NCBI GenBank assembly: GCA_963663005.2
Contig: CAXXHH010000008.1
Location: forward strand, 213,229-277,228
DNA length: 64,000 nucleotides
Reading direction: 5' to 3'
Source: Prolixibacteraceae bacterium
Lineage (GTDB): Bacteria > Bacteroidota > Bacteroidia > Bacteroidales > Prolixibacteraceae
Of this stretch, positions 5,419 through 24,976 are shown one piece after another (position 1 is the first letter of the stretch; each line of letters starts with the position of its first letter). Below the pieces are notes generated by a model, which searched no databases, had not been told where the DNA came from, and saw only the letters and a list, made by a program, of their open reading frames with translations. The position numbers and the translations under genes are program-made.

Positions 5419-6096
5419 ATGTTAAAAAAGATGCTTTCTGCAGTTGTAATCCTGCTTTTAGTTACCGGATTACTTGCAGCAAAAGAAAAAGCTGTCTCCC
5501 TGAAAAAATTCAAGCAAACCGACATTGGAAATCCTGCCTTAAAAGGCTCATCGCAAGTTCAGGATAAAGGTATCCAAATTATTGCCGGAGGTGCAGATGT
5601 CTGGGGTGTAAAAGACGAATTTCATTTTTCCTGGCTGGAACAATCCGGCGATTTTGATCTGGTCGCCCGGGTCGAAAGCCTTACCGCGCCCCACATGTAC
5701 ACCAAAGCTGGTTTAATGGCACGCGAAGAACTGACAGACAATTGCCGCCACATCTTTTTTCAGGTATTCCCGGATAACAAACCGCGCAATAAAAATAACG
5801 GAGGATATGAATTTCAATTCCGGCAAGCAAAAGCCGGCGAGATGAAAGCGATCTATCCGGCAAAATTCGATGGGACACCCGAATTTCCTGCCAATTACCC
5901 AAATACCTGGATTCGTTTGAAACGTGCGGGAAATCTCTTCACAGGATTCTACAGTGCAGACGGTAAAACCTGGAAAATCTATACTTCCTATTCCCTCGAA
6001 CTTCCGCACAAAATTTATCTCGGATTAGCCGTTACCTCGCATAACACCAAAAGCACGGCTACATCGGTATTCAAGGATATTTCTTTTCTAAAATGA
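5419..6096 (+). CDS. Secreted concanavalin-A-like/LamG-type jelly-roll protein (DUF1349-like), function unknown
   Basis: Signal peptide followed by a beta-rich domain (GGADVWG..DEFHF..GDFDLVARV..KAGLMARE..GLAVTSHN). Its stop overlaps the sulfatase start (ATGA at 6093-6096). Confidence 0.5.
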   Translation: MLKKMLSAVVILLLVTGLLAAKEKAVSLKKFKQTDIGNPALKGSSQVQDKGIQIIAGGADVWGVKDEFHFSWLEQSGDFDLVARVESLTAPHMYTKAGLMAREELTDNCRHIFFQVFPDNKPRNKNNGGYEFQFRQAKAGEMKAIYPAKFDGTPEFPANYPNTWIRLKRAGNLFTGFYSADGKTWKIYTSYSLELPHKIYLGLAVTSHNTKSTATSVFKDISFLK

Positions 6097-7520
6097 GGAC
6101 GATAAAAACTGTGTTTTGGGGATTGGCGCAAATAGCCGGTCTCTCCGCTTTTGCCGAAAAACCGAACATCATTTACATTTTGGCTGATGATCTTGGTTAC
6201 GGCGATCTCAGCTGCTACGGACAGAAGCATTTTCAGACACCAAATATAGACCGGATGGCTAAAGAGGGAATGCTCTTTACCCAGCATTATGCCGGATGTA
6301 CCGTCAGCGCTCCTTCCCGCTCCTCCCTCATGACCGGTCTGAATACCGGCCATACTCCTATTCGTGGAAACAAAGAAGCTACCGAGGAAGGCCAATGGCC
6401 ACTTCCTGGTTCGACTGTCACCATACCCAAGCTACTCAAGGAAGCTGGTTATGTGACGGGAGGATTCGGGAAATGGGGACTTGGTTATCCGGGCTCGGAA
6501 GGTGATCCGAACAATCAGGGGTTCGACGAGTTTTACGGGTTTAACTGCCAGCGGATGGCCCATAACTATTATCCCGATCATCTTTGGGATAATCAGAAAA
6601 AGGTGATGCTGGAGGAAAACACCGGCGATAAATTTGGTCAATACGCTCCTGAGCTGATACACCAGCGCGCCATACAATTTATGGAGAAAAACAGGAACAG
6701 ACCCTTCTTCATGTTTTATCCAACCACGATCCCGCATGCCGAATTGATGGTGCCGAAGAAGTATATGGATAAGTTTAGGGGAAAATTCCTGCCCGAACAT
6801 TCATTCAAAGGAGCCGTACCCGGCGATAAAGGATTCAGAGTCGGATCGTATGGGACGCAACCTGAATCTCACGCCGCATTTGCTGCCATGGTTACTCTTC
6901 TCGATGAAAAAGTCGGTGAGCTGTTTGCCAAGCTAAAAGAGCTCGGATTGGATAAAAATACGATCGTGCTTTTCAGTTCCGACAATGGTCCGCATTTGGA
7001 AGGTGGCGCCGATCCCGATTATTTTGATAGCAATGGTCCATTCAAAGGCTACAAACGCGACCTGTATGAAGGAGGTATTCGCGAGCCCATGATTGCCTGG
7101 TGGCCCGGGAAGATTAAAGCCGGATCAACCTCCGACCTTATTTCTGCCTTCTGGGACGTGATGCCAACTTTGACGGATATTGCCGGCGTTAAATCACCGG
7201 AAAAACTGGACGGAATTTCTTTCCTTCCAACCCTTCTTGGTGAAAAAGGCCAGAAACAGCACGAAACGATGTACTGGGAATTTCATGAGCAAAATGGCAG
7301 ACAAGCGATTCGCAAAGGATCATGGAAACTGGTAAAATACAACGTGCTGATTCCTCAGAAGACGACTACCGAACTTTTCGACCTGAGCAAGGATCCTGGC
7401 GAAGAAAACGACCTGGCAAACAAATATCCCAACATCGTTAAGGAACTCTCTACGTTGATCGCAGGATCGAGAATTCCGTCAGACGTGTATAAATTTCAGC
7501 AGCAAACGGTGATTCAATAA
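6093..7520 (+). CDS. S1-family sulfatase (arylsulfatase-like), apparently Ser-type
   Basis: PNIIYILADDLGYGD, sulfatase signature CTVSAPSRSSLMTG (S-x-P-x-R), GKWGLG, SSDNGP. A signal peptide is present. Confidence 0.9.
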   Translation: MRTIKTVFWGLAQIAGLSAFAEKPNIIYILADDLGYGDLSCYGQKHFQTPNIDRMAKEGMLFTQHYAGCTVSAPSRSSLMTGLNTGHTPIRGNKEATEEGQWPLPGSTVTIPKLLKEAGYVTGGFGKWGLGYPGSEGDPNNQGFDEFYGFNCQRMAHNYYPDHLWDNQKKVMLEENTGDKFGQYAPELIHQRAIQFMEKNRNRPFFMFYPTTIPHAELMVPKKYMDKFRGKFLPEHSFKGAVPGDKGFRVGSYGTQPESHAAFAAMVTLLDEKVGELFAKLKELGLDKNTIVLFSSDNGPHLEGGADPDYFDSNGPFKGYKRDLYEGGIREPMIAWWPGKIKAGSTSDLISAFWDVMPTLTDIAGVKSPEKLDGISFLPTLLGEKGQKQHETMYWEFHEQNGRQAIRKGSWKLVKYNVLIPQKTTTELFDLSKDPGEENDLANKYPNIVKELSTLIAGSRIPSDVYKFQQQTVIQ

Positions 7521-10772: not shown

Positions 10773-10898
10773 AAAAAGATCAGCCAATTTTGATTTTACT
10801 TTTTTGGCTGATAACTGTCTATTAATTACTTTAGACGACAAGATTTGAACAAACTATATAGAATTAATAACCCCCGTAATGGGAATAAATTTAAAACC

Positions 10899-11636
10899 AT
10901 GAAGAGAAACATTTTTTTGACCATCACTTTGATTGCAGCCATGTTAATCGCTGCTCCCGCCTTTTCTCAAAAGGTGAATGAACTGACTAAAAAAGAGAAA
11001 AAAGAAGGCTGGACACTTTTATTCAATGGAAAAAATTTCGATGGCTGGAGACAGTGCAACGGAACCGTCATGCCCACCAACTGGGTTATTGAAGATGATG
11101 CGATGAAAGTCTTCACAGCACCCGACAAAAAACCCGGACAAGGTTCTAACGGTGACATCCTGTATCCTGGAAAGAAATACAAAAATTTCGAACTCACGAT
11201 CGACTGGAAAGCAAGCAAAGAAGCTAACTCAGGAATTTTCTACAACGTGAGAGAAGTTCCGGGCAAACCAATCTATTATGCTGCTCCTGAGATTCAAGTT
11301 CTCGACAATGTTGATGCTGGCGATAATAAACTGGCGAATCACCTTGCAGGTTCATTGTATGACATTCTTCCATGTGATCCAAAAACAGTAAATCCTGCCG
11401 GTCAGTGGAATACTTGCAAAGTTACCCTGAAAGATGGTGTTTGTGTACATTATATGAACGGCAAAGAGGTTGTTAAATACACCTTGTGGACTCCTGAATG
11501 GGATGCAATGGTAGCCAAGAGCAAATTCAAATCATTCCCAGGCTGGACTGAAGGAATTGCGAAAGAAGGCTTCATCGGTCTGCAGGATCACGGATACGCT
11601 GTTTGGTTCCGTAACATCAAAATTCGCGAGCTCTAG
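10899..11636 (+). CDS. DUF1080 (3-keto-disaccharide hydrolase domain) protein, secreted
   Basis: ATG at 10899 gives the signal peptide MKRNIFLTITLIAAMLIAAPAFS. GWRQ..NWVIEDD, NSGIFY, EIQVLD, GLQDHG..VWFRNIKI are characteristic of DUF1080. Confidence 0.85.
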   Translation: MKRNIFLTITLIAAMLIAAPAFSQKVNELTKKEKKEGWTLLFNGKNFDGWRQCNGTVMPTNWVIEDDAMKVFTAPDKKPGQGSNGDILYPGKKYKNFELTIDWKASKEANSGIFYNVREVPGKPIYYAAPEIQVLDNVDAGDNKLANHLAGSLYDILPCDPKTVNPAGQWNTCKVTLKDGVCVHYMNGKEVVKYTLWTPEWDAMVAKSKFKSFPGWTEGIAKEGFIGLQDHGYAVWFRNIKIREL

Positions 11637-11665: not shown

Positions 11666-11701
11666 ATGCCTCAAATAGTAATTTATTTGGGGCATTTTTT
11701 C
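11666..11701 (+). terminator. Rho-independent terminator after the DUF1080 gene
   Basis: Stem ATGCCTCAAA/TTTGGGGCAT (11666-11675 / 11686-11695, one U-G pair) followed by TTTTTT. The track ORF start at 11666 lies inside this hairpin. Confidence 0.6.
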
Positions 11702-11722
11702 AGGAATAAAAACATATCCATC

Positions 11723-12643
11723 ATGCATCTTCGTAATTTTTTGATCTTTTCATCCCTGGCACTCGTTTCCTGCTCCACAAACCCTGCAAATAAACCTCAA
11801 CCCAAAGTGGAGAAAACGGATCCTGTCAAAAGTTCGGAATCCATTCAGACTGTCACAAAACGGGAAATGGTTTCGTTTGAAGGCGGCGCTTTCACCATGG
11901 GGTCTTCGGATGGACCGAATCAGGAGCAGCCTGCCCATCGTGTCGAAGTCAAGCCATTCAGCATCGACAAATATCCCGTCACGGTTGCTGATTTCCGCAG
12001 ATTCATCGAGGCAACGGGTCACAAGACCGACGCCGAGAAATTTGGAGATTCAGGCGTTTTCGATTTCGCCACTTCGGCCTGGACGCTAAAACCCGGGGCT
12101 ACCTGGCAATATCCGATGGGAAAAAATACTGCCCGTGCGGAGGACAACTTACCCGTCACGCAGGTTAGCTGGTATGATGCAAATGCCTATGCCGCGTGGG
12201 AAGGAAAGCGACTACCGTCGGAAGCCGAATGGGAATTTGCAGCCCGCTGCGGAGGTTCAGGCACCAGCCGCTTTAGCTGGGGCGACAACCTGGTCGTGAA
12301 TGGGAAATATCAGGCCAACGTCTGGCAAGGAACCGATGTCTCGGCAAAACAGGGTGACGATGGATTTGTACTCACATCACCGGTAGGATATTATGGATTG
12401 ACGAAATGCGGCCTGGCCGATATGGGCGGAAACGTATGGAACTGGTGCGCTGATGTTTATAAGCTCTATCCCGGAAATAACGCTCCCTTTCAGGAAAATC
12501 CGGATTTGAAAGTTATTCGCGGAGGTTCTTTCTTTTTCGACCAAAACGGTGAAAAGAGCTATACAGTCAGCGGGAGGGCATTCAATACACAGGAAACCTC
12601 GCTTTTTAATACCGGATTCAGATGCGCAAAAGATGGAAAATAA
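11723..12643 (+). CDS. FGE-fold (SUMF1/EgtB/PvdO family) lipoprotein lacking the catalytic Cys pair
   Basis: ATG at 11723 gives the lipobox MHLRNFLIFSSLALVSCS. FGE-domain blocks are present (RLPSEAEWEFAARCGG, GNVWNWCADVY, IRGGSFF). The region after RGGS reads FFFDQNGEKSYTVSGRAF, with no Cys. Confidence 0.85.
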   Translation: MHLRNFLIFSSLALVSCSTNPANKPQPKVEKTDPVKSSESIQTVTKREMVSFEGGAFTMGSSDGPNQEQPAHRVEVKPFSIDKYPVTVADFRRFIEATGHKTDAEKFGDSGVFDFATSAWTLKPGATWQYPMGKNTARAEDNLPVTQVSWYDANAYAAWEGKRLPSEAEWEFAARCGGSGTSRFSWGDNLVVNGKYQANVWQGTDVSAKQGDDGFVLTSPVGYYGLTKCGLADMGGNVWNWCADVYKLYPGNNAPFQENPDLKVIRGGSFFFDQNGEKSYTVSGRAFNTQETSLFNTGFRCAKDGK

Positions 12644-12883
12644 TAATTTTTAGGTCATTATGCCCTGAATAAAATATTTTTCTAAATTTGGCGGTCATTA
12701 TTGAGTAAATCTCCTTAAAACAACAACTAAACAATGATCAAAACGGCTTGAAAAGCAGATCCTTTTCCTGCGGGCTGGGATCAGAACAGTTCAGAATGGA
12801 TTTTTCTTTAAATGACGAAAAAATTTGTACTCCATATGTATTTCTTTTTTAATAAGATAACGGTCAGAAAAATAATTTTCAGG

Positions 12884-14416
12884 ATGAAATTTAGCAATTT
12901 GTTCAATGGTAAAAAATCCAAATTTTGGTTGGTTGGCTTAGGTATTTTGCTCTGTGCTTTCTTTATTTTTTCCTTCAATCTGGTTTCAAATTATACCTCC
13001 TCAGACAAATATTGTGTCTCCTGCCATATTCATCCTGTTCAGGATCAGAACTGGCGACTATCCGAGCACTACAATAATAAATCGGGTTTTGTGACTCACT
13101 GCGTGGAGTGTCACCTTCCTCCCAAAGGTCACGGATACATTCCGGCGAAAGCCTGGCACGGCGCCAAGGACATCTACGGAAAACTTTTTAAAGACAGTGC
13201 CTCGTTCGACTGGGAAGCAAAGAAATCGCTCGAAAATGCAAAAAAATACGTCTACGAATCATCCTGTATCAAGTGCCATCAAAACCTTTTCCCTGCTACT
13301 CTTTCTGTGAATGGCAGCAATGCCCACCTGCAATATATCAACAGCAAGGATATTCCAAAACCAAATTGTATCAACTGCCACCTCAACGTCGGACATTACG
13401 ACAAGAACAATCTCCACGCCCACAATGCCAGTTTTGGAGTAACCGAAACAGTGGCTAAAGAGCTTTTCTCCGAACCGGCCAAAGTTGACAAATTCGAAAA
13501 TTTTGCCGAGAAAGTACCTGGAACGACCCTTTCGTTCGATATGGTAGCAATTCCCGAAGGAACATTTGAGATGGGAAGTCCTGAAAATGAGGAGCTGCGC
13601 AAGCCCGACGAAGGACCTGTACGCAAAGTCCACCTTACAAAATTCTGGATGGGCAAAGCTGAAGTTAGCTGGGAAGAATACCTCGAATTTTTCAAGGCAA
13701 CTGCCTCTCAGGGTCGCAAAGAAGCCGTCGCTGTTCAGCCAGTTACCGATGCGATAACCGGCCCGACTCCGCCATGGGGAGCCCCCGATCAAGGCTGGGG
13801 AAAGGGAACACGCCCTGCCATTACTATGTCGTGGAAAGCGGCAAGCACCTATTGCCTTTGGCTTTCCAAAAAAACCGGAAAGAAATACCGCCTGCCTACG
13901 GAGGCTGAATGGGAATATGCCTGCCGCGGCGGTTCAAAGGATCCTTACTTCTTCCCGGGAAATCCGAAGAAATTTACCTCTGCGGGTATGATGAAGAAAA
14001 TTTTTGGTCCGGACACCACCATGATAAACTCATATGTTATCTACAAGGTGAACAGTCAGTCGAAAACGCGTGAACCCGGTTCCGTAAAAGCAAATCCGTT
14101 CGGATTGAAAAATATGCTGGGCAACGTTGCGGAGTTTTGCTCCGACTTTTATGCCCCAAACAGTTATAAAACCGCATCAGGCGATCTGCTCAACAACCCT
14201 ACCGGTCCGGAGAATGGACAGGAACATGTGATCCGCGGCGGTTCATTCAAGAGCGATGCCAAGGATGTCAGAAGCGCCGCGCGCGATTTCACCAAAACAA
14301 AGGCGTGGCTGATGACTGACCCACAGATGCCGAAGAGTATCTGGTGGTATTCGGATAGTAATGACGTTGGTTTCAGAGTTGTTTGTGAGGCCGACTCTAC
14401 TCTTTCAGGAAAGTGA
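12884..14416 (+). CDS. Fusion protein: membrane-anchored NapC/NirT/NrfH-type tetrahaem cytochrome c plus C-terminal FGE-fold domain
   Basis: ATG at 12884 (MKFSNLF..), one TM helix, and four CxxCH motifs (CVSCH 13013, CVECH 13100, CIKCH 13265, CINCH 13367). From about nt 13523 an FGE-like domain follows (RLPTEAEWEYACRGG, GNVAEFCSDFY, IRGGSFKSD). Confidence 0.85.
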   Translation: MKFSNLFNGKKSKFWLVGLGILLCAFFIFSFNLVSNYTSSDKYCVSCHIHPVQDQNWRLSEHYNNKSGFVTHCVECHLPPKGHGYIPAKAWHGAKDIYGKLFKDSASFDWEAKKSLENAKKYVYESSCIKCHQNLFPATLSVNGSNAHLQYINSKDIPKPNCINCHLNVGHYDKNNLHAHNASFGVTETVAKELFSEPAKVDKFENFAEKVPGTTLSFDMVAIPEGTFEMGSPENEELRKPDEGPVRKVHLTKFWMGKAEVSWEEYLEFFKATASQGRKEAVAVQPVTDAITGPTPPWGAPDQGWGKGTRPAITMSWKAASTYCLWLSKKTGKKYRLPTEAEWEYACRGGSKDPYFFPGNPKKFTSAGMMKKIFGPDTTMINSYVIYKVNSQSKTREPGSVKANPFGLKNMLGNVAEFCSDFYAPNSYKTASGDLLNNPTGPENGQEHVIRGGSFKSDAKDVRSAARDFTKTKAWLMTDPQMPKSIWWYSDSNDVGFRVVCEADSTLSGK

Positions 14417-14443
14417 AAATTGAATAGCGATACGAGAAAAAAA

Positions 14444-15787
14444 ATGGAAAAGAAAAATATCGACAGAAGAAAATTTTTGGGAGCCGGTGTCCTTGCCGGA
14501 GTATCGGTTATTGGCGCCAATGCGCTGCTCTCATCATGCAAACAAGAAGCTACTAACGCCTCCCTCGGACTTCCACCCATCTTGAAAGGTGCGCCAAAAG
14601 GGAAAAAGCTTCGTGCCGGATTGGTTGGTGCCGGAAACCGGGGTACCGGGGCGGCTATTAACTTTATCAGCGCTGGTCCTGATCTCGAAATCATCGCAGT
14701 TTGCGATGTCTTTCAAGACAAAATTGATGCTTTCCGCGAGCGTTTCAAATCTTTCAATTTGGAAATCCCGGAGAAGAACTGTTTCGCCGGATTCGATGGA
14801 TACAAAAAAATGATGGCTCTGGAAGATTTGGATGTTGTTCTGTTGGCAACCCCTCCCCGCTTTCGCCCCGAACATTTTCTGGAAGCTATCCAAAATAAAA
14901 AACATGTCTTCATGGAGAAACCGGCCGCCGTCGACCCTGTCGGTATCCGGTCGGTGATTGCTACCGCGAAAAAAGCTGAAGCGCTTGGACTATGTGTCGT
15001 TACAGGCACCCAGCGCCGGCACCAGGAAGATTATATTGAGACCTATAAACGGGTTCAGGCCGGCGCAATAGGAAGGCTCACATCCGCTAAAGCATTCTGG
15101 AACCAGGAGCATGTCTGGTTTCGTACCCGCGAAGAGGGGTGGGACGATATGACCTACATGATGCGCAACTGGAACAATTTCTGCTGGCTATGCGGCGATC
15201 ATATCCTCGATACGCACGTTCACAACATTGATGTGGTGAATTGGTTCATGGGTAAGACTCCTATCCGCGCAATCGGCAACGGTGGTCGTCACCGCCGCGT
15301 TACGGGCGACCAGTACGACTATTTCAATATCGACTTCGATTATGGCAATGGCGTCAGCTCTCACAGCTACTGCCGCCAGATCGACAGTTGCGCCAATGGA
15401 ACCGGCGAGCTGGTAATGGGTACCGAAGGCTATACCAACTGCGTTAACACCATCTGGGATCTTAACGGAAAAATAAAATGGCAGTTCGAATATCCCAAAG
15501 ATGAAAATGGGAATACCATGAGTCAACTCAAAATACCTGCCTACGTTCAGGAGCACATGCACCTGGTTCATGCCATCCGAAAAAACGAGTACGTGAACCA
15601 GGCCGAACAGACAGCCCTTTCCACCCTCACCGCGATTATGGGCAGAACAGCGGCCTACACCGGACAAATGGTGACCTGGGAGGAAATAATGAAATCGGAT
15701 ATGCAACTCGGACCAAAAGAAATGGTATTCGGTCCGGTGGATATGAAATTCGATGTACCACTTCCCGGCACCCCTCCAAACGTCTAA
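14444..15787 (+). CDS. Gfo/Idh/MocA family oxidoreductase with Tat signal
   Basis: MEKKNIDRRKFLGAG signal, Rossmann motif GLVGAGNRGTG, and the EKP motif (FMEKPAAVD). The ATG at 14444 is preferred over the TTG at 14420. Confidence 0.9.
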   Translation: MEKKNIDRRKFLGAGVLAGVSVIGANALLSSCKQEATNASLGLPPILKGAPKGKKLRAGLVGAGNRGTGAAINFISAGPDLEIIAVCDVFQDKIDAFRERFKSFNLEIPEKNCFAGFDGYKKMMALEDLDVVLLATPPRFRPEHFLEAIQNKKHVFMEKPAAVDPVGIRSVIATAKKAEALGLCVVTGTQRRHQEDYIETYKRVQAGAIGRLTSAKAFWNQEHVWFRTREEGWDDMTYMMRNWNNFCWLCGDHILDTHVHNIDVVNWFMGKTPIRAIGNGGRHRRVTGDQYDYFNIDFDYGNGVSSHSYCRQIDSCANGTGELVMGTEGYTNCVNTIWDLNGKIKWQFEYPKDENGNTMSQLKIPAYVQEHMHLVHAIRKNEYVNQAEQTALSTLTAIMGRTAAYTGQMVTWEEIMKSDMQLGPKEMVFGPVDMKFDVPLPGTPPNV

Positions 15788-15902: not shown

Positions 15903-17219
15903 ATGATTACTAACTCAAACAGAAGGGCTTTTTTGAAAAAATCAGCGGTTGCTTCTGTGGGAACGATGATTCTTCCACAGATCATTCCCTCTACCGCTTT
16001 GGGCATGGGTGGCAGGTTAGCTCCAAGCAACCGGCTCGTCATGGGACAAATCGGTACCGGATCTCAGGGTAAAAGCAACATGCGCGACTTCCTCAAACTG
16101 AACAAAGAAGTACAGTTTGTAGCCGTTTGTGACGTGGATGCCAACAACTTACAACAGGCGAAAGAGCTGGCAAACAAGGCCTATGCCGACAACGGATGCC
16201 GCACTTATGTCGATTTTCGCGAATTCCTTGACAAAGAGAAACTGGATGCCGTCTCCATTGCGCTACCAGACCATTGGCACGGAATTATCTATTCCGCCGC
16301 TGCTGAAAAGAAGGTACATGTCTATGGCGAAAAACCAATCTGCCGCACAATTCGTGATGGCCAAACTATCGTGAAAGCCGTACAAAAAAACAATATCATC
16401 TGGCAAACGGGAAGCTGGCAAAGATCGAACGCCAATTTCCATAGAGGCGCCGAGCTGGCTATCAATGGCCGAATCGGTAAGATTCACCTGATCGAAGCCG
16501 GACTTCCAAACGGAGGAAAAGGAATTGGTACACCTCCGATACAGGAAATTCCGAAAGAACTGAATTGGGATATGTGGTTAGGACCTGCTCCCAAAGTTGC
16601 TTACCGCGGTGTTAGTCACTGGAACTGGCGATGGATCCTTGAATATTCCGGCGGACAACTAACCGACTGGGCCGGCCACCATATAGACATCGCAAACTGG
16701 GGCGCCGGACTAGAGCATACCGGACCCGTCGAAATTGTTGGCGAAGGTGTTTACCCAAGAGAAGGTATTTACAATGTTCCCGTCGAGTACGACTTCCTGT
16801 GCACCTATGCCAACGGAATCAAAATGAGGGTGGCAAATGAGGCACGCTTCGAAAAAGGATCCGGTACCACCTGGTACGGAGATAAAGGCTGGATACACGT
16901 CAATCGTGGTAACGTGCTGGAAGCTTCCGATCCGAAGATCCTGAAGGAAGTAATCGGCGCCAAAGAAATCCAACTGATAAAGAGCGACAACCACTGGCAA
17001 AATTTTGTCGACAACGTCCGCGCAGGTTCAAAAAAGACCATCGCCCCGATTGAAGTTGCTTATCGTGCCATCTCTGTCGCGCTCTTAGGTGAAATCGCCA
17101 TGCAGACCGGTCAAAAAATCAAGTGGGATCCTAAGAAGGAAGAAATCATCGGCAACCCAATGGCAGCCCGTTTGCTCGATCGTCCCTATCGTCAACCATG
17201 GCAATTACCAACTATTTAA
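15903..17219 (+). CDS. Gfo/Idh/MocA family oxidoreductase with Tat signal (second paralogue)
   Basis: MITNSNRRAFLKKSAVASVG signal, GQIGTGSQGKSN Rossmann motif, YGEKPICRT. Confidence 0.9.
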   Translation: MITNSNRRAFLKKSAVASVGTMILPQIIPSTALGMGGRLAPSNRLVMGQIGTGSQGKSNMRDFLKLNKEVQFVAVCDVDANNLQQAKELANKAYADNGCRTYVDFREFLDKEKLDAVSIALPDHWHGIIYSAAAEKKVHVYGEKPICRTIRDGQTIVKAVQKNNIIWQTGSWQRSNANFHRGAELAINGRIGKIHLIEAGLPNGGKGIGTPPIQEIPKELNWDMWLGPAPKVAYRGVSHWNWRWILEYSGGQLTDWAGHHIDIANWGAGLEHTGPVEIVGEGVYPREGIYNVPVEYDFLCTYANGIKMRVANEARFEKGSGTTWYGDKGWIHVNRGNVLEASDPKILKEVIGAKEIQLIKSDNHWQNFVDNVRAGSKKTIAPIEVAYRAISVALLGEIAMQTGQKIKWDPKKEEIIGNPMAARLLDRPYRQPWQLPTI

Positions 17220-17228
17220 TCCAAGCAC

Positions 17229-18452
17229 ATGAAAAAAATTTATACCGTATTCCTGCTGCTGGCAGCATTTTTCTTCCTCTCAACAGGTCAGGTTCAGGCT
17301 GCTAATTACAAGGCATTGATCGTTACCGGTCAAAGCAATCACTACTGGGAAGGTTCGTATCCAATCCTGCAAGAGTTGCTGATTCAGACCAACCTGTTTA
17401 CCGTCGATGTAGTTAAAACACCTGCCAAAGGTGGGGATATGTCGGCCTTTCAACCGGATTTCAAGAAATACAACATCGTGGTAATAGATTATAATGGCGA
17501 GTCCTGGTCAGAAAAAACGAAAACAGCATTTCTGGATTTCGTGAATAATGGCGGAGGAGTGGTCATTTACCATGAAGCCGACAACTCATTTGCCGACTGG
17601 AAAGAGTACAATAAAATCATCGGTATTGGTGGGTGGAATGGCCGCTCTGCCAAGGATGGCCCTTATGTTTATTATAAGAGGAATAAATTGGTTATTGATT
17701 CGGTATCGACCGGCCCGACTGGCTCACACGGACCTCAGCATGAATATGTTGTAAGAACCAGAAATGCCGAACATCCAATCATGAAAGGACTTCCGACCTC
17801 CTGGATTCACGGGAAAGATGAACTTTACAGCACCCTTCGCGGGCCTGCTAAAAACATGGATATTCTGGCTACAGCTTACGCGGATACTTCCAAAAAGGGA
17901 ACCGGCAGGGACGAACCCATGCTGATGACCCTCCAATATGGCAAAGGAAGAATTTTCCACACCGCGCTGGGTCATGTCGGTAAAGACGAGACACATCCTG
18001 CCACTGAATGCGTCGGATTCATCGTGACTTTCCAACGCGGCGCCGAATGGGTCGCTTCAGGTAAGGTAACCCAGCAAATACCACTCGATTTCCCAAATAT
18101 GGCAGGTTCCGTGTTGAGGCCTGATTATAAAGAAACAACGCTGGCTGATGATATCGAAAAAATTTCCACCTACACCATTGACAGAAGTACCCGCTTTTTC
18201 ACTGATCTTCAGGGAAGAATCCGCAGAGTCAGCGGAAATCCTGCCGCCTTGCTGGATATTGAAAAGAAGATGGTCAAAGTCTTGCAAGACAACGACGCTA
18301 CCGTGGAAGGTAAGAAACTCCTTCTGAAAGAACTCGCCTGGATGGGTTCTAACTACTGCGTTCCTGCTGTTCAGGATCTGCTTAAAAATGCCGATCTGAA
18401 GGAAGCCGCTGCGTTTACCCTCGAGAGAATGAAAGGCCCCCGCAAAATCTGA
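17229..18452 (+). CDS. ThuA-domain protein with C-terminal HEAT-like repeats, secreted
   Basis: Signal peptide. ThuA-like core (ALIVTGQSNHYWEG, VIDYNGE, GGGVVIYHEADNSF, WKEYNKIIG). The C-terminal roughly 100 aa are helical repeats (LLKELAWMG..AVQDLLKNADLKEAAAFTL). Confidence 0.8.
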   Translation: MKKIYTVFLLLAAFFFLSTGQVQAANYKALIVTGQSNHYWEGSYPILQELLIQTNLFTVDVVKTPAKGGDMSAFQPDFKKYNIVVIDYNGESWSEKTKTAFLDFVNNGGGVVIYHEADNSFADWKEYNKIIGIGGWNGRSAKDGPYVYYKRNKLVIDSVSTGPTGSHGPQHEYVVRTRNAEHPIMKGLPTSWIHGKDELYSTLRGPAKNMDILATAYADTSKKGTGRDEPMLMTLQYGKGRIFHTALGHVGKDETHPATECVGFIVTFQRGAEWVASGKVTQQIPLDFPNMAGSVLRPDYKETTLADDIEKISTYTIDRSTRFFTDLQGRIRRVSGNPAALLDIEKKMVKVLQDNDATVEGKKLLLKELAWMGSNYCVPAVQDLLKNADLKEAAAFTLERMKGPRKI

Positions 18453-18668: not shown

Positions 18669-19598
18669 ATGTTTTCCCTCGTCATCCCAGTCTTTAACGA
18701 AGAACAGTTAATCGATGATCTGGTCTCCCGGGTTGTGGCATCGGTAAATTTATTTGCCGTCGACTATGAGCTACTCTTCATTGACGACGGAAGTACCGAC
18801 AGAACCGTTGAAAAACTCCTAAAGCACAGACTCACAAACAAGAAAATAAAGATTGTATCCCTGTCGAAAAATTTCGGACACCAGGCTGCCTTCACGGCCG
18901 GACTGGAACTATCCACCGGAGACATTGTTGCCATGATGGACGGAGACCTGCAGGATCCGCCGGAACTGCTGGAAAAGATGTACCGGAAAATCCGGGAGGA
19001 AGGTTACGACATCGTTAGCGGAAAAAGAACCGGAACAAAAGGACGCACCCAGCGTACCTTTTATACCCTTCTTTTTCATGTGGTTTTCAAATACATGGCC
19101 GGACTCGAAAATATGGAGAATGCCGGGAATTTTTCCATGATGACGCGCGAAGCAGTTCAGGCACTCCTTTCCATGAAAGAAAAAGTTCGCTATATGCCCG
19201 GACTACGCTCATTCATCGGTTTTAATCAGGGAAGTGTTGAATACATCCGGGAAGACCGGTTTCAGGGCGAACCCAAAATGAGCTTGTCCAAACTCTTTGC
19301 GCTGGCCAACGATGCCATCTTTTCTTTTTCCCGGTTTCCCATCCGGCTCTGCCTATATCTTGGCATCCTGGGCACCGTAGTCTTCATGTCGGCCGGCATC
19401 TACGTTCTGGTCGACAAAATTCTTGGTCTCGCCATAATCGGATGGTCTTCCACTCTTCTAAGCATCTATTTCCTGGGCTCAATTCAGCTGATCTTCCTGG
19501 GAATCGTCGGAGAATATGTTTTCCGTATCTACAAAGAATCTCAAAACCGGCCGATCTATTTTATCCGAAAAATCCATGAAGATCCTTCCAATCCGTGA
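18669..19598 (+). CDS. GT2 polyprenyl-phosphate glycosyltransferase (ArnC/GtrB/DPM1-like)
   Basis: FSLVIPVFNEE, FIDDGSTD, MDGDLQDPP, and two C-terminal TM helices. Confidence 0.9.
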   Translation: MFSLVIPVFNEEQLIDDLVSRVVASVNLFAVDYELLFIDDGSTDRTVEKLLKHRLTNKKIKIVSLSKNFGHQAAFTAGLELSTGDIVAMMDGDLQDPPELLEKMYRKIREEGYDIVSGKRTGTKGRTQRTFYTLLFHVVFKYMAGLENMENAGNFSMMTREAVQALLSMKEKVRYMPGLRSFIGFNQGSVEYIREDRFQGEPKMSLSKLFALANDAIFSFSRFPIRLCLYLGILGTVVFMSAGIYVLVDKILGLAIIGWSSTLLSIYFLGSIQLIFLGIVGEYVFRIYKESQNRPIYFIRKIHEDPSNP

Positions 19599-21663
19599 GG
19601 GAATAACGGGTAAATCCCTATTCAACCTCGCCGCCTTCCTGCTGCTGATCTTCATACTCTTCAGCGCCAATAAGGCCGGCATCTCCGGCGACGAGGAGGT
19701 TCACTACAATCAGTCAGTCAGTGTTTACAACTATTTCTCCTCCCTGGGTGTCAATAACAGTGCGCTGAATACGCCTGTCACCCATCTTAAATACTACGGA
19801 CAATCGTTCGACAACATAACCACCATCCTGATACGTTGGTTCGGAATTGAAGATATCTACAGTTTCAGACATCTGATGAACAGCTTTGCCGCCTGGTTGA
19901 CAATTCTGCTCTCCGCGCTTCTTGCTGTTTGGCTTTCCGGGTACGAGGCCGGATTTCTTACCCTCATTCTATTCGCGTTATCTCCTACTTTTCTGGGTCA
20001 CGCACAGAATAATCTGAAGGATATCCCATTTGCGCTTGCTTACATTGCGGGCTCTCTTTACATGCTAAAATGGCTCTTCGCTAAAAAACCATCTCTGGTT
20101 AATTCGTTGCTTCTCATCTTCTCAATCGCATTTTGCATCGGCATTCGTCCGGGCGGACTGGTTTTAATCTGTTATCTCCTGCTTTTTTTCCTGATCAAAG
20201 AGGTAATTGCCTTCCGAAAAAATGCAAGATATAACACGGCATTCCTTCGCAACAAATTGATATCCATCGGATTCATTATTTTCCTTTCCTATCTCCTGGG
20301 AATCCTTCTTTGGCCATTCGTACTAAAATACCCGGTCACCGGTTTTTGGGAATCCTACAAAGTTATGACCCAGTTTCCGACAACTGTCCGGCAAATTTTT
20401 GAAGGCAGATTCGAATGGTCCGATTTCATGCCATGGTACTATCTTCCCAAACTGATGCTCATCACAATCCCACTCGTGGTCTGGGCCGGAATCCTTTGTT
20501 TTATCTCCCTTCCGGGGAAAGCCCTAAAGAAAGAGTGGTTAAAATATACCTTTTTGTTGTTCACAATCCTCTTCCCAATCCTGTTTGTAATTTATGAACG
20601 ATCCAACCTGTACGGCTCCTGGCGACATTTTCTATTTATCTATCCTGGAATCGTTGTCCTTTCTGCCACAGGAATCTGGAATCTTCTGCGGTTTTTTAAG
20701 TCTGCCGTAAAAAAGGGAATAATTCTCCTGATAGTTTTTCTACTTGCCCTGCATCCTATCGATTTCATGGCACGAAATTATCCCTACTATTACCTCTATT
20801 ACAATCAATTAGTCGGCGGACTGAAAGGTGCATACGGCAAGTACGAAACGGATTATTACTACCATTCCGTCCGGGAAGGATCAGAATGGCTGATTGGATA
20901 TTTGAAGCAGAACAATCCGTCCGACAGTCTGAAAATTGGCTCCAATTTTCCGGCAGATTGGTTCTTCCGAAAGGAGAAAAACCTCTCTTCCACATATTTC
21001 ATGTATAGCGAGAGAAGCCAGCATGACTGGGATTTTTACATCGTTGCCAACAGTTACATCTCGCCAACTCTTCTTAAAAATGGAAACTGGCCTCCTAAAA
21101 ATGCGATCAAAATAATTAAAGCAGACGGAATCCCGATCTGTGCAATTTTAAAAAGAGAAAACAAGGATGATCTTCTTGGATTCCAGGCATATAATCGAAA
21201 CTCGCTGCAAGAAGCCACAAAATTCTTTGAAGATGCCATTAGAAAGGGGTGTCAGGATGAAATAATCTTTTATAATTTTGCGTCGGTATGCTACAAATCG
21301 GGTGACAAAGAAAAAGCAACCACTTTATTGCAGAAGGGGTTGGAAATTAATCCGGATTGTGAACGTATTCTGATGCTTCAGGCAAACATTTTTGCTGAAG
21401 TGAAAAAGTTTGATCAGGCTGCAGAATTATACCAAAAGGTGATACGGGTAAACCGGAAATATTTTGACGCTTATCCTGCGCTGGCAAAGATTTGGATAAA
21501 TCAGGGCGAGCTAAAAAAAGCCCGGAAGCTGCTGAAGGATTGTTTGATGATGAGCCCCAAAAATAAGGCGGCCATTCTTGCTTTGGCCGACAGTTACAGA
21601 AAGAGCGATCCCGATGTAGCAAAAAAGTATGAAGAATTAGCCCTTCAACTTCCAACTGATTGA
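19576..21663 (+). CDS. GT-C fold glycosyltransferase (GT39/ArnT/PMT-like) with C-terminal TPR domain
   Basis: ATG at 19576 (MKILPIREG..), overlapping the GT2 stop by 23 nt. About 11 TM segments with a GDEE motif in the first loop. The last roughly 190 aa are TPR repeats. Confidence 0.8.
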   Translation: MKILPIREGITGKSLFNLAAFLLLIFILFSANKAGISGDEEVHYNQSVSVYNYFSSLGVNNSALNTPVTHLKYYGQSFDNITTILIRWFGIEDIYSFRHLMNSFAAWLTILLSALLAVWLSGYEAGFLTLILFALSPTFLGHAQNNLKDIPFALAYIAGSLYMLKWLFAKKPSLVNSLLLIFSIAFCIGIRPGGLVLICYLLLFFLIKEVIAFRKNARYNTAFLRNKLISIGFIIFLSYLLGILLWPFVLKYPVTGFWESYKVMTQFPTTVRQIFEGRFEWSDFMPWYYLPKLMLITIPLVVWAGILCFISLPGKALKKEWLKYTFLLFTILFPILFVIYERSNLYGSWRHFLFIYPGIVVLSATGIWNLLRFFKSAVKKGIILLIVFLLALHPIDFMARNYPYYYLYYNQLVGGLKGAYGKYETDYYYHSVREGSEWLIGYLKQNNPSDSLKIGSNFPADWFFRKEKNLSSTYFMYSERSQHDWDFYIVANSYISPTLLKNGNWPPKNAIKIIKADGIPICAILKRENKDDLLGFQAYNRNSLQEATKFFEDAIRKGCQDEIIFYNFASVCYKSGDKEKATTLLQKGLEINPDCERILMLQANIFAEVKKFDQAAELYQKVIRVNRKYFDAYPALAKIWINQGELKKARKLLKDCLMMSPKNKAAILALADSYRKSDPDVAKKYEELALQLPTD

Positions 21664-22007: not shown

Positions 22008-23051
22008 TTATTCCAGGTACAAACTTTTTTTACTTCTGGGCAGCGCTTCTCCGATAATCGCAGATTCGGGTAAGCCTGCCTTTGTTTTTAACTGCTCCAA
22101 CAGTTCAGTTGCCCTTTCGGCAGGCACCGCCATCAGCAAACCGCCCGATGTCTGTGCATCACAACACAACATTTTCCGTTCATAGGCCAAGTTTGAACCA
22201 AAACTGGTACTTCCCCTTACAAACTCCAGATTTCTGAAGGCAGCGCCGGGAATACAGCCATCTTCAAGCAATGTTATTGACTCCGGGAAATGAGGTAAAC
22301 TACCGGAATAAATCCTCAGCGTCACGTTACTTGCGTCTGCCATCCGCATTGCATGCCCCAAAAGGCCAAATCCTGTAATATCCGTTGCTCCTTTCAGGTT
22401 GAACATTTGCATCGCCTCTGCCCCACTCTTATTCAATTGCTTCATACAATCCAATGCCTTGCGCACTGTCAGTTCATCTGTCATCTTACTTCGTTGTCCG
22501 GCCAGAATCACGCCCGTTCCAAGTGGTTTTGTCAGAATCAGAACATCGCCTGCTCTGACACCCGAGTTAGTGATTAACCTATCGGGATGAACAGTTCCAA
22601 CAACTGCCAGTCCGAATTTTGGGGGAAAGTCCTCTATCGTGTGACCGCCCAGAACCAACGCCCCCGCTTCAACAACCTTGTCGTGCCCTCCCTGCAAAAT
22701 GGCTCCAAAAATAGAAAGTGGAATTTTCGAGGCCGAAAACATCATAAGGTTTAAGGCCAGAAGCGGCGTGCCTCCCATTGCATAAACATCACTAAGGGCA
22801 TTAGCAGCAGCAATCTGCCCAAACTCATATCCGTCACTACAAACAGGAGGGAAGAAATCGGTAGTATAGATCAGAGCTGTCTCATCGTTAAGCTTATAAA
22901 CACCTGCATCATCATGGGTTTCAATGCCTACCATCAGATTGGGATGCTCCACTTTTGGCAACTTCGCAAGGATCTCCCCCAACTGAACAGGCGACAGCTT
23001 GGCGGAACAACCACCCTGCTCAACAGTCGATAACAAATCAAAATCAATCAT
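22008..23051 (-). CDS. selD: Selenide, water dikinase (selenophosphate synthetase), Cys-type
   Basis: N-terminal QGGCSAKLSP (Cys at the Sec/Cys position), and an AIR-synthase-like fold with DDAGVY and GGHTIED. Confidence 0.95.
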   Translation of the reverse strand: MIDFDLLSTVEQGGCSAKLSPVQLGEILAKLPKVEHPNLMVGIETHDDAGVYKLNDETALIYTTDFFPPVCSDGYEFGQIAAANALSDVYAMGGTPLLALNLMMFSASKIPLSIFGAILQGGHDKVVEAGALVLGGHTIEDFPPKFGLAVVGTVHPDRLITNSGVRAGDVLILTKPLGTGVILAGQRSKMTDELTVRKALDCMKQLNKSGAEAMQMFNLKGATDITGFGLLGHAMRMADASNVTLRIYSGSLPHFPESITLLEDGCIPGAAFRNLEFVRGSTSFGSNLAYERKMLCCDAQTSGGLLMAVPAERATELLEQLKTKAGLPESAIIGEALPRSKKSLYLE

Positions 23052-23652: not shown

Positions 23653-23874
23653 TTACTGTAATCTCGTCACCACCATCCCTTTCTCGCCTGCAAATATTTC
23701 CAGTTTGTCGCCTGTCTCTTTCGTGGTTTCCAAACACATTCCACATTCAGTCGAATAAGGCTTTGGTACCGGAATTACCCTCACATCCAGCTTGTTCTCC
23801 ACACACCATCGCTCCGCCAAAATTACCTGACGGATATTCTGGAACAAAAAGATCTGTCTATCTCCCGGCATCAT
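23653..23874 (-). CDS. DUF3343 / putative Se-S carrier-like small protein
   Basis: 73 aa. The pattern F..I..V..AE..L....L.VRVIPVP...S.ECGMCL fits PF11823-type proteins. It overlaps the upstream desulfurase stop. Confidence 0.75.
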
Positions 23875-24976
23875 GTATTGCTTTGGACAAATAATTCAAT
23901 TCTTCCGGTGTGTGGTAAGGCGATAATGAAAACCGGCAATCCCCGGTAGGGAAAGACCCAAGATGACGATGGGCAAGGGGTGCACAGTGCAATCCGGCCC
24001 TGCATTCTATTCCCCAATCTTCATAGAATCTGAGCGCCAGATCCGATCCGCTCAGCGACTTATGAATGACGGAAAATAACTTCCCCTGATTCGCAAAATC
24101 TGCCGCACTGCGTACTACGTAGTTTGGATTCTGCCTGACCTCTTCCAACAAAGCTGCAAAATCGTCGCGGGAATGTTTGGAGACCGGCCTGTTTTTTAGC
24201 GCAGCATTTAAGCCATGAATGCCTGTGATATTTGGCGTTCCTGCTTCAAACCTGTCTGGAGCAAAGGTGGGCATTGTGAGTGAATCAGAGCCACTGCCAG
24301 TGCCGCCAAACAGCAGTGGTTCAACCATCTCCGGATGCCTGATAAATGCCCCCCCGGTTCCGGTTGGTCCCAGCAAAGACTTATGTCCGGTGAAGGCGAG
24401 AAAGTCGATACCCCAACTATCCACTTCTACCGGATGCTGGCCAAGCGACTGGCTTGCATCCACCAGCAATGGAATATCCCCGATTGCCTGCTTGATTTCC
24501 CCGGGAGACTGTGCCATCCCATTCACATTACTCATGTGGCAAACCGCCACCAAAATAGTATTCGGACGTATCTTTGAGGCAATATCTTTAATCTTGATCC
24601 GGCCATCCGGCTCGCTATCCAAAAGCTCCCATTCAATCAATCCCATCTTCCGAAGATGCTCCAGCGGTCTGGCAATGGCATTGTGCTCCATGGCAGAGGT
24701 TAAAACATGCCCTCCCTTTTTGCAAATGCCCTGAAGCATCAGGTTCAAAGCGGTGGTGGCATTGGCAGTGAAGATTATCTTTCCCCCATCCGAAGCGCCC
24801 ATCATTTCAGCCAGCAGGTCGCGACACTCTTCCACCAGTTTCGTCGATTGTAAAATTCGTGGATAAGCAGACCGACCATACGTCCCGCCTGTCTCATTCA
24901 AATGTTTAGCCATCGCCTCCGCTACCGCTGAAGGTTTGGGAAAACTTGTCGCACAATTATCAAAGTATAAATTCAT
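23858..24976 (-). CDS. Class V aminotransferase: cysteine desulfurase / selenocysteine lyase family
   Basis: PLP-lysine motif [14 protein letters not shown] and active-site loop RAGLHCAP. Confidence 0.85.

Follow-up and report, generated by a model that had tools for sequence, protein, structure and literature searches.

We analysed a 64,000-nucleotide stretch of DNA from a Prolixibacteraceae bacterium (contig CAXXHH010000008.1), called the window below, in which the gene at 12884-14416 encodes a membrane-anchored tetrahaem cytochrome of the NapC/NirT type fused to a domain with the fold of the formylglycine-generating enzyme (FGE). We propose, with a probability of roughly 0.55, that this fusion protein, probably a flavo-cytochrome, serves a periplasmic dehydrogenase complex as its membrane-bound electron-transfer subunit, and that the partner of the fusion is Gfo1, the Gfo/Idh/MocA oxidoreductase encoded by the next gene. 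The domain architecture, the loss of the FGE Cys pair, a conserved loop and tail in the FGE half, genomic linkages to Gfo1 and to ApbE, and independent fusions to another cytochrome were observed; the physical complex, the flavinylation, the direction of electron flow and the substrate class are what we infer. The features of the two genes, all on the + strand, are as follows.

12884-14416, +: fusion gene, 510 residues (translation, Pfam), with transmembrane anchor, tetrahaem NapC/NirT domain and Cys-less FGE-fold domain
12923-12988, +: N-terminal transmembrane helix, about residues 14-35; best 19-residue Kyte-Doolittle window from residue 16, with a Lys-rich segment before it
12914-13399, +: NapC/NirT domain PF03264, residues 11-172; E=3.1e-25, 89.3 bits against a cut-off of 24.1, profile positions 6-170 of 174
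13013-13027, +: haem c site 1, CVSCH, CxxCH at residue 44
13100-13114, +: haem c site 2, CVECH, CxxCH at residue 73
13265-13279, +: haem c site 3, CIKCH, CxxCH at residue 128
13367-13381, +: haem c site 4, CINCH, CxxCH at residue 162
13538-14290, +: FGE-sulfatase fold PF03781, residues 219-469; E=2.1e-44, 152 bits against a cut-off of 23; the subfamily-specific fold runs on to about residue 503
13748-13768, +: predicted ApbE flavinylation loop D289-A-I-T-G-P-T295, agreeing with 6 of 7 motif positions; flavin mononucleotide (FMN) predicted on T295
14306-14356, +: subfamily tail motif W475-LMT-DPQMPKS-IWW-YSD491 (W..DPQxPKSxWW), just after the segment that holds the Cys pair in true FGE
14420-15787, +: Gfo1, Gfo/Idh/MocA oxidoreductase (PF01408, PF22725) with a twin-arginine translocation (Tat) signal (DRRKFLG) and a lipobox (LLSSC); predicted catalytic partner

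The list of open reading frames (ORFs) offers an alternative upstream ATG for the fusion at 12812, but fusion homologues of 509-511 residues span 100% of the form starting at 12884, which is therefore the likely start. Homologues were sought in a 5.8-billion-protein database, in which each match stands for one 90%-identity cluster, and the best 120 were used. At least the best 120 fusion homologues (67-88% identity) all carry both Pfam domains, which, together with the Pfam E-values, excludes chance for either domain. Their source labels range over 'formylglycine-generating enzyme', 'sulfatase modifying factor 1', 'cytochrome c nitrite reductase small subunit', 'SUMF1/EgtB/PvdO family nonheme iron enzyme' and 'hypothetical protein'. 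At 37-50% identity an exhaustive search for distant fusions, covering 1.84 billion representatives, recovered a handful of full-length fusion clusters (P0122, P0124, P0125, P0128, P0181) amid the very large FGE superfamily.

An earlier note, made from the letters of this DNA alone, had described one N-terminal transmembrane helix and four CxxCH motifs at nt 13013, 13100, 13265 and 13367; hydropathy analysis and a motif scan returned the same elements at exactly these positions. Its assignment of the two halves to a NapC/NirT-type cytochrome and to the FGE fold was borne out by the PF03264 and PF03781 profiles, respectively. Residues 14-35 or so are also the only ones that are confidently helical in AlphaFold2 models of the fusion, and the placement of this helix puts the rest of the protein in the periplasm. 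The four haem sites are invariant in alignments of the fusion homologues, save for site 1 of Acidobacterial forms, which is CxxxCH (CDQTCH or CDQFCH in the Acidobacteriota-type fusions L017 10004-11485, L113 4442-6007, P0128 and P0220). H50, H62, H148 and H171 are likewise invariant in an alignment with 14 homologues. K89 and D96 correspond, with the same 7-residue spacing, to the Lys and Asp in the quinol-site segment 'lpfKaiagarDvy' of NrfH (2j7a_C), and both are invariant among the aligned fusion homologues; in NrfH we take these residues to be K82 and D89.

Like the NapC/NirT tetrahaem quinol dehydrogenases NrfH, CymA and NapC, the fusion thus combines an N-terminal anchor, four CxxCH motifs, the PF03264 domain and the quinol-site Lys and Asp. 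It differs from NrfH in the haem-1 motif, which is CxxCHxM in NrfH and CxxCHxH in the fusion, and the scores against the named equivalogs lie far under the NCBIfam cut-offs (NrfH 65 against 134, TorC 58 against 478, NapC/NirT 45 against 311). TorC/DorC also possess an extra C-terminal domain, and the C-terminal extension of the fusion could similarly dock a partner enzyme; unlike that of TorC, it is an FGE fold and not a haem domain. A further difference from the NapC/NirT family is that the partner would be a Gfo/Idh/MocA dehydrogenase instead of a nitrite, nitrate or trimethylamine N-oxide reductase, and that electrons are predicted to flow towards the quinone.

In the C-terminal half the strings RLPTEAEWEY, GNVAEF and RGGSF are all found, and its closest PDB sequence matches are PvdO (5hha, 1e-21) and FGE (6s07, 6e-21). 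With FGE (SUMF1 and the bacterial, copper-dependent enzyme) it shares the fold and the core motifs RLPTEAEWEY, GNVxEx, RGGS and GFR. In contrast to FGE, it has no catalytic Cys pair, it has an extra flavinylation-type loop and a DPQxPKSxWW tail, and it has no conserved sulfatase neighbour. The segment following RGGSF is KSDAKDVRSAARDF, without Cys. The region of the copper-binding catalytic pair after RGGS reads RGGSFKSDAKDVRSAARDF in the fusion and contains no Cys in the 14 aligned members; the pair is present in 0/14 of these homologues, down to 37% identity. In all, the FGE half contains just four Cys residues, C324, C347, C419 and C501. Judged by its sequence, this half cannot make formylglycine.

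The absence of the catalytic Cys, already reported in the earlier note for the window protein, thus extends to the aligned homologues, and the doubt raised there about formylglycine synthesis is strengthened by the gene neighbourhood as well. A sulfatase gene does lie about 5 kb upstream of the fusion (6093-7520, +), and another lies upstream in the related locus L001, which, together with the FGE-sulfatase fold, would suit an anaerobic, quinone-linked FGE variant that matures nearby sulfatases. We regard this explanation as close to refuted: the Cys pair occurs in none of the 14 aligned members, sulfatase genes are not conserved neighbours of the fusion whereas Gfo1 is, and the local sulfatase carries the Ser-type signature S-A-P-S-R. 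Being Ser-type, the local sulfatase is not an FGE client; its maturation would be the task of an anaerobic radical S-adenosylmethionine maturase.

By its sequence the FGE half belongs to a distinct subfamily with two signatures, the DAITGPT-type loop and the W..DPQxPKSxWW tail. The tail is an insertion of about 15 residues in which W475, D479, P480, Q481, P483, K484, W487, W488 and D491 are invariant; it is present in subfamily loci and missing from generic FGE loci. Judged by the structures of FGE and by the position of the tail in the sequence, loop and tail presumably lie at the former FGE active-site groove. A metal site in this half, which the earlier note proposed to look for, was rejected: the subfamily alignment contains no conserved His, Cys or Met, and what was found instead was the flavinylation loop. 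Membership in the PvdO, GldK/PorK, EgtB or SenA families was rejected, as scores reached only 10-30% of the cut-offs (114 bits against 500 for PvdO, NF051459, and 109 bits against 350 for PorK/GldK, TIGR03525), and no type IX secretion or gliding genes were identified in the surveyed neighbourhood of the fusion. PvdO, which is needed for dihydropyoverdine oxidation, is the top match in both PDB and NCBIfam and resembles the FGE half in being periplasmic, Cys-less and set in a redox context. It reads E-C-I-A-G-K-P where the fusion family has D-A-I-T-G-P-T, its gene context differs, and its alignment stops at query residue 424 of 510, ahead of the tail region. The same FGE subtype was also seen with an N-terminal extension of about 400 residues, without a haem motif, in P0243 and in L021 4684-6855 (Limisphaerales, Verrucomicrobiota), where the extension has a weak, sub-threshold match to FG-GAP_3.

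The distribution of the subfamily was surveyed in 80 loci, with one genome per GTDB species and ORFs classed by BLASTP against the window proteins. Full NapC/NirT-FGE fusions were found in 13/80 loci (Bacteroidia, Prolixibacteraceae, Draconibacterium, Porphyromonadaceae, Rikenella, Cryptobacteroides, Ancylomarina, KSB1, Acidobacteriota and one unclassified bacterium). About 43 loci contain the same FGE subtype without the NapC/NirT part (30-44% identity, with the tail W..DPQxPKSxWW as the diagnostic feature) and come from Flavobacteriia, Sphingobacteriia, Chitinophagia, Cytophagia, Saprospiraceae, Planctomycetota, Verrucomicrobiota, Acidobacteriota and Gemmatimonadota. The remaining 24 of the 80 encode generic FGE-sulfatase proteins without the tail. 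The subfamily (56 loci) therefore spans Bacteroidota, Planctomycetota, Verrucomicrobiota, Acidobacteriota and Gemmatimonadota.

Of the 56 subfamily loci, 40 also contain a Gfo1-type gene, against none of the 24 generic FGE loci (Fisher p=8e-10; because of the phylogenetic relatedness of the loci, this p-value and the one given for ApbE below overstate their independence, and the ORFs come from a crude script). In 33 of these 40 loci it is adjacent and on the same strand, with gaps of -111 to 612 bp, and in each of the 11 GTDB fusion loci whose sequence extends downstream it comes next after the fusion. A metagenome scan seeded with Gfo1 gave a similar picture: an FGE-type gene was found in 34 of 52 loci with enough upstream DNA, 28 of them NapC/NirT fusions, and where Gfo1 is at least 55% identical to that of the window the fusion lies upstream in 9/9. 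The genes upstream of the fusion differ among relatives, and the order fusion-then-Gfo1 is constant. The conserved neighbour, which the earlier note had left to a survey of gene neighbours, is therefore Gfo1, and the aligned homologues do not keep the Cys pair, nor are sulfatase genes conserved neighbours of the family. We consider a functional partnership between the fusion and Gfo1 highly probable.

In the window the Gfo1 ORF opens 3 nt past the stop codon of the fusion, and its likely true start is the ATG at 14444. Among 22 diverse Gfo1 members, the RR and EKP motifs are invariant, as is the core G-x-G-x-R-G-x-G-A of the dinucleotide loop GCGGRGTGAA, and the active-site segment GDHIVEQHVHNIDV is highly conserved. 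Gfo1 thus looks like an exported, cofactor-loaded enzyme. It matches no characterised member of the 3-keto-glycoside systems or the Zymomonas enzyme discussed below, and its closest characterised relatives are generic: the top NCBIfam profile is IolG (78 bits, cut-off 355), and the strongest PDB match reaches no more than 1e-11.

The subfamily is joined to haem proteins in more than one way. In Verrucomicrobia and Acidobacteria one or two PSCyt1 cytochrome c domains, unrelated to NapC/NirT, are fused to the N-terminus of the same FGE subfamily, and the Gfo1 gene lies beside several of these PSCyt1-FGE fusions. Because two unrelated haem modules have been fused to one domain family, the FGE domain would itself take part in electron transfer. 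Most NapC/NirT anchors come from Bacteroidia-class lineages (Bacteroidales, Prolixibacteraceae/Draconibacterium relatives), with a few from KSB1 and Acidobacteriota; these lineages we take to rely largely on menaquinone. PSCyt1, or no haem domain, is found in lineages with soluble cytochrome c chains. This distribution fits the mechanism proposed below.

Because NAD(P)H gives up a hydride and haems accept electrons singly, something between Gfo1 and the cytochrome has to convert two-electron into one-electron transfer. The conserved ApbE-type loop and the genomic linkage of the subfamily to ApbE suggest that the missing cofactor is covalent FMN. The motif residue to which ApbE couples FMN is the last one of D-x-x-[S/T]-G-A-[S/T] (PMC12052999). 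All of the 120 closest homologues carry the loop, as DAISGAT (64), DAITGAT (7), DAITGPT (43), DAVTGPT (4) or DAISGPT (2); it is fully canonical in 71/120 and contains G-P-T in 49/120. D289 and T295 are invariant in the fusion alignments, and D289 is conserved to at least 95% across the wider subfamily. With average residue frequencies, the pattern D..[ST]G[AP][ST] should turn up by chance in an estimated 0.4% or so of proteins of this size. Loci assigned to generic FGE have no tail, and they gave a single match to the loop pattern, put down to chance.

An ApbE gene is present in 20/56 subfamily loci and in 0/24 generic FGE loci (p=4e-4); where the gene order was inspected, it stands no more than a few genes away from the FGE-type gene. 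Eight of the ApbE ORFs were confirmed as PF02424 (E 1e-63 to 1e-77), and seven metagenome loci add to the association. In L113 the order is apbE, NapC/NirT-FGE fusion, gfo1, gfo1, with a gap of 10 bp between apbE and the fusion; L017 (Acidobacteriota) has the same layout, with apbE directly upstream of the fusion and then gfo1. Homologues in Pedobacter and Echinicola belong, as in L028, to an operon that combines standalone FGE-type, Gfo1 and ApbE genes. A Pfam census of the two genes on either side of the FGE-type/Gfo1 pair assigned 11 flanking ORFs to xylose-isomerase-like TIM barrels and 8 to ApbE. We considered whether ApbE might act on another target and rejected this, as no recurrent canonical flavinylation motif was found in other ORFs of the ApbE-containing loci.

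Since c-type haem sites are matured outside the cytoplasm, these sites and the N-terminal anchor place the FGE half on the extracytosolic side, and standalone relatives of this FGE subtype carry signal or lipoprotein leaders. Surveys of ApbE substrates list the classes FMN_bind, NqrB/RnfD, DUF2271, DUF3570, Flavodoxin_4 and FMN reductase; FGE, SUMF1 and Gfo/Idh/MocA are not named among the substrates in these papers (PMC8238504, PMC11334425, PMC12052999). We judge it reasonably likely that the FGE half carries ApbE-installed covalent FMN in the family at large, and give flavinylation of the window's own G-P-T variant odds slightly better than even. In the Flavobacteriaceae loci L024 (9857-12538) and L059 (9881-12493) an ORF of about 180 residues, YceI-like by Pfam in L024, comes after a standalone FGE-type gene and before ApbE, with no Gfo1 nearby; the predicted flavoprotein may also serve partners other than Gfo1.

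In the mechanism that we propose, Gfo1, as a Tat-exported lipoprotein, would use tightly bound NAD(P), non-exchangeable in the periplasm, to oxidise a sugar, glycoside or polyol. The FGE half would be its partner domain, probably bearing ApbE-attached FMN on T295. The FMN of this loop would come in as a second 'substrate', take the hydride from NAD(P)H and release single electrons to the four haems of the NapC/NirT half, which would then reduce membrane menaquinone at the K89/D96 site. Electron flow towards the quinone is the direction we favour with some confidence, and a sugar or polyol is the probable substrate. The potentials are about -320 mV for NAD(P)H and about -74 mV for menaquinone, so that flow from NAD(P)H to menaquinone is downhill and the reverse is not. 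The catabolic genes around the fusion (GH92, GH29, acetylesterase and DUF1080), with isomerase-like TIM barrels elsewhere, agree with flow to the quinone. The suggestion in the earlier note that the FGE-fold module is wired to the quinone pool through four haems is supported by these data.

Several observations weigh against this proposal. NapC/NirT proteins classically oxidise quinol, and quinone reduction is their less usual direction. There is no Gfo1 within 10 kb in 16/56 subfamily loci and no nearby FGE-type gene in 18/52 Gfo1-seeded loci (mostly 40-50% identity), which rejects an obligate pairing of FGE-type protein and Gfo1; the pairing is strong but not obligate. No ApbE gene lies within the 64-kb window, and we assume one elsewhere in the genome, since Nqr and Rnf of Bacteroidales need ApbE. 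The AlphaFold models are of low confidence, with a pLDDT of 34 for the single sequence and 35 with a 66-sequence alignment (67-87% identity), and leave proximity of T295, the tail and haem 4 unsupported. The window loop has Pro where the motif has Ala (position 6), and standalone relatives read D-A-[IV]-[TS]-R-P-[ST], still farther from the canonical motif. The only motif substitutions tested, Gly to Ala and Ala to Val, gave about 50% flavinylation each (PMC12052999).

The departure of the window loop from the canonical motif (G-P-T for G-A-T) and the lack of ApbE in the window would be accommodated if the FGE half carried no flavin and were a pseudo-enzyme or lectin-like docking module, tethering the Gfo/Idh/MocA enzyme or binding a glycan near the tetrahaem cytochrome, with electrons reaching the haems from the partner by some other route. 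Such an adaptor would also be in keeping with the absence of conserved His, Cys and Met from the FGE half, and among the PDB sequence matches are PorK/GldK and variable ligand-binding proteins, whose FGE fold is a scaffold without catalytic function. We nevertheless find it unlikely, as nothing would then convert two-electron into one-electron transfer between NAD(P)H and haem. The adaptor also does not explain the invariance of D289 and T295 in the fusion alignments and the canonical motif in 71/120 close homologues, nor ApbE in 20/56 loci that offer no other candidate target.

The remaining alternative reverses the direction. The characterised NapC/NirT matches (NrfH, NapC, TorC) are quinol dehydrogenases, and the NapC/NirT half might, as in NrfH, CymA and TorC, oxidise menaquinol and feed the FGE domain, with or without a flavin, and then a periplasmic reductase reaction, for example one in which the Gfo/Idh/MocA partner reduces a keto-sugar or other acceptor. 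Ketoreductases do occur among the Gfo/Idh/MocA enzymes in the PDB matches. This possibility appears quite improbable, because the reduction of NAD(P)+ by menaquinol is strongly uphill, the operon stands in a catabolic setting (from GH29, GH92 and the esterase to DUF1080 and the isomerase-like TIM barrels), and the same subfamily is fused to class-I cytochrome c domains in other phyla. Such domains in aerobes are typically of high potential and are acceptors, not donors. We therefore retain the dehydrogenase complex that delivers electrons to menaquinone as the preferred explanation.

The proposed subunit has parallels in characterised ApbE-flavinylated proteins (NqrC, RnfG, PplA, the FMN_bind domains of fumarate and urocanate reductases, DUF2271, DUF3570, Flavodoxin_4 and FMN reductase), with which the fusion shares the extracytosolic site, a 7-residue D..[ST]GA[ST]-type loop, the linkage to ApbE and, as proposed, the role of linking an oxidoreductase to the membrane electron pool. 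It would differ from them in its carrier fold, FGE-sulfatase, and in the variation of motif positions 5-6 within the subfamily (G-A, G-P or R-P). Flavin and cytochrome modules are used modularly in extracytosolic electron transfer (PMC8238504). Gfo1, for its part, resembles the enzymes of the periplasmic 3-keto-glycoside systems (ThuAB, LacABC, BT2156-BT2159) and the Zymomonas glucose-fructose oxidoreductase, which are likewise Tat-exported Gfo/Idh/MocA proteins presumed to hold non-exchangeable NAD(P). The Gfo1 loci share with the 3-keto-glycoside systems DUF1080, ThuA and xylose-isomerase-like TIM-barrel neighbours and the problem of cofactor re-oxidation (PMC8121099). Re-oxidation at the Gfo1 loci would use a dedicated flavo-cytochrome partner that passes the electrons to quinone, and not a second sugar substrate.

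Periplasmic, Tat-exported Gfo-type glycoside dehydrogenases need a re-oxidant that has not been identified (Liu et al. 2021, PMC8121099), and for Gfo/Idh/MocA dehydrogenases with non-exchangeable NAD(P), such as those by which gut Bacteroides make 3-keto-glycosides, the re-oxidation step is a recognised gap. If our proposal is correct, the locus would fill it with a flavo-cytochrome partner devoted to passing electrons on to menaquinone. The complex would then be a quinone-reducing dehydrogenase, and a respiratory module, of a new type, and the FGE-sulfatase fold would join the short list of ApbE substrates as a previously unrecognised FMN carrier. Whether this extends to the whole subfamily is evenly balanced: the FGE fold as ApbE-FMN carrier may form, with NAD(P)-loaded Gfo/Idh/MocA enzymes, a widespread periplasmic dehydrogenase family in Bacteroidota, Planctomycetota, Verrucomicrobiota, Acidobacteriota and Gemmatimonadota, from which electrons would leave through a lineage-specific haem module. 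The candidate exits are the NapC/NirT tetrahaem half to menaquinone in anaerobic Bacteroidia, and PSCyt1 cytochrome c domains or free cytochromes elsewhere. Genomes labelled Rikenella, Candidatus Cryptobacteroides, Porphyromonadaceae and Prolixibacteraceae contain related fusion loci. If the proposal holds, periplasmic sugar oxidation could be a means of energy conservation for many such Bacteroidia, a sugar-oxidising respiration in organisms thought to have minimal electron-transport chains. A widespread mis-annotation of the fusion proteins as 'formylglycine-generating enzyme' or 'SUMF1/EgtB/PvdO family nonheme iron enzyme' would also be corrected.

The fusion reaches no equivalog cut-off in an NCBIfam profile scan. 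The databases and the full-text literature yielded no curated family, characterised member or publication that gives a NapC/NirT-FGE fusion a role, in line with the earlier note, which could attach no characterised function to it. The literature and the supplements of the flavinylation surveys contain no mention of the fusion, of a pairing of the FGE fold with Gfo/Idh/MocA, or of FGE/SUMF1 as an ApbE target; one supplement was incompletely covered, and absence from it is not conclusive. The fusion is thus a family without a name, and we found the arrangement, a probable haem-flavin electron subunit for a periplasmic dehydrogenase, described nowhere.

Three further genes of the neighbourhood are relevant as context or as accessory functions.

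15903-17219, +: Gfo2, second Gfo/Idh/MocA oxidoreductase with a Tat signal, distantly like the BT_2158 glycoside 3-dehydrogenase family (PDB 8tdf, 6e-26)
17229-18452, +: ThuA-like protein with a Sec signal (PF06283, E=9e-26), accessory, in close relatives only
10845-11636, +: DUF1080 / 3-keto-disaccharide hydrolase family protein (PF06439, E=1e-48), context, position not conserved

Against NF058561, the profile of the BT_2158-type glycoside 3-dehydrogenase (cut-off 750), Gfo2 scores 150 bits and Gfo1 33 bits. The Gfo2 gene is kept only in close relatives, the ThuA-like gene is syntenic in L001, L004-L008 and L088-L092, and a DUF1080 gene lies upstream also in L001. A standalone Cys-less FGE-sulfatase lipoprotein is encoded at 11666-12643 (+; PF03781, E=4e-67), with the C-terminal domains of SenA and EgtB as its top sub-threshold matches. 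It was rejected as a part of the system, being without loop and tail and not syntenic beside the fusion in relatives.

Counts of sigma-70 promoter-like sites (17 against 10.6 ± 3.1 in shuffled sequence) and of terminator-like sites (12 against 9.9 ± 3.3) were within two standard deviations; Bacteroidota use other promoter types. Tat-signal xylose-isomerase-like TIM barrels follow Gfo1 in L012, L014-L016, L018, L025, L036, L050, L057 and many of L100-L167, with no such gene in the window. They resemble hydroxypyruvate or 2-oxo-tetronate isomerase (100-117 bits, under the cut-off), which suggests a periplasmic step that processes a keto product. After the operon, window positions 18669-21663 (+) encode a GT2 glycosyltransferase and a 715-residue multi-spanning membrane protein with C-terminal TPR repeats. 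The order of this pair also occurs in L001, L004, L005, L009, L011, L088-L092, L095 and L124; it is kept where the fusion is only about 55% identical, and in L009 and L011 the pair comes directly after Gfo1. Farther downstream, an AIR-synthase-related protein (AIRS/AIRS_C, SelD architecture) is encoded beside a class-V aminotransferase (22008-23051 and 23858-24976, both on the - strand). Genes of these two types stand together with Se_S_carrier and TusA/DsrE genes in L001 (19023-21533), and they look like a selenium or sulfur mobilisation cluster.

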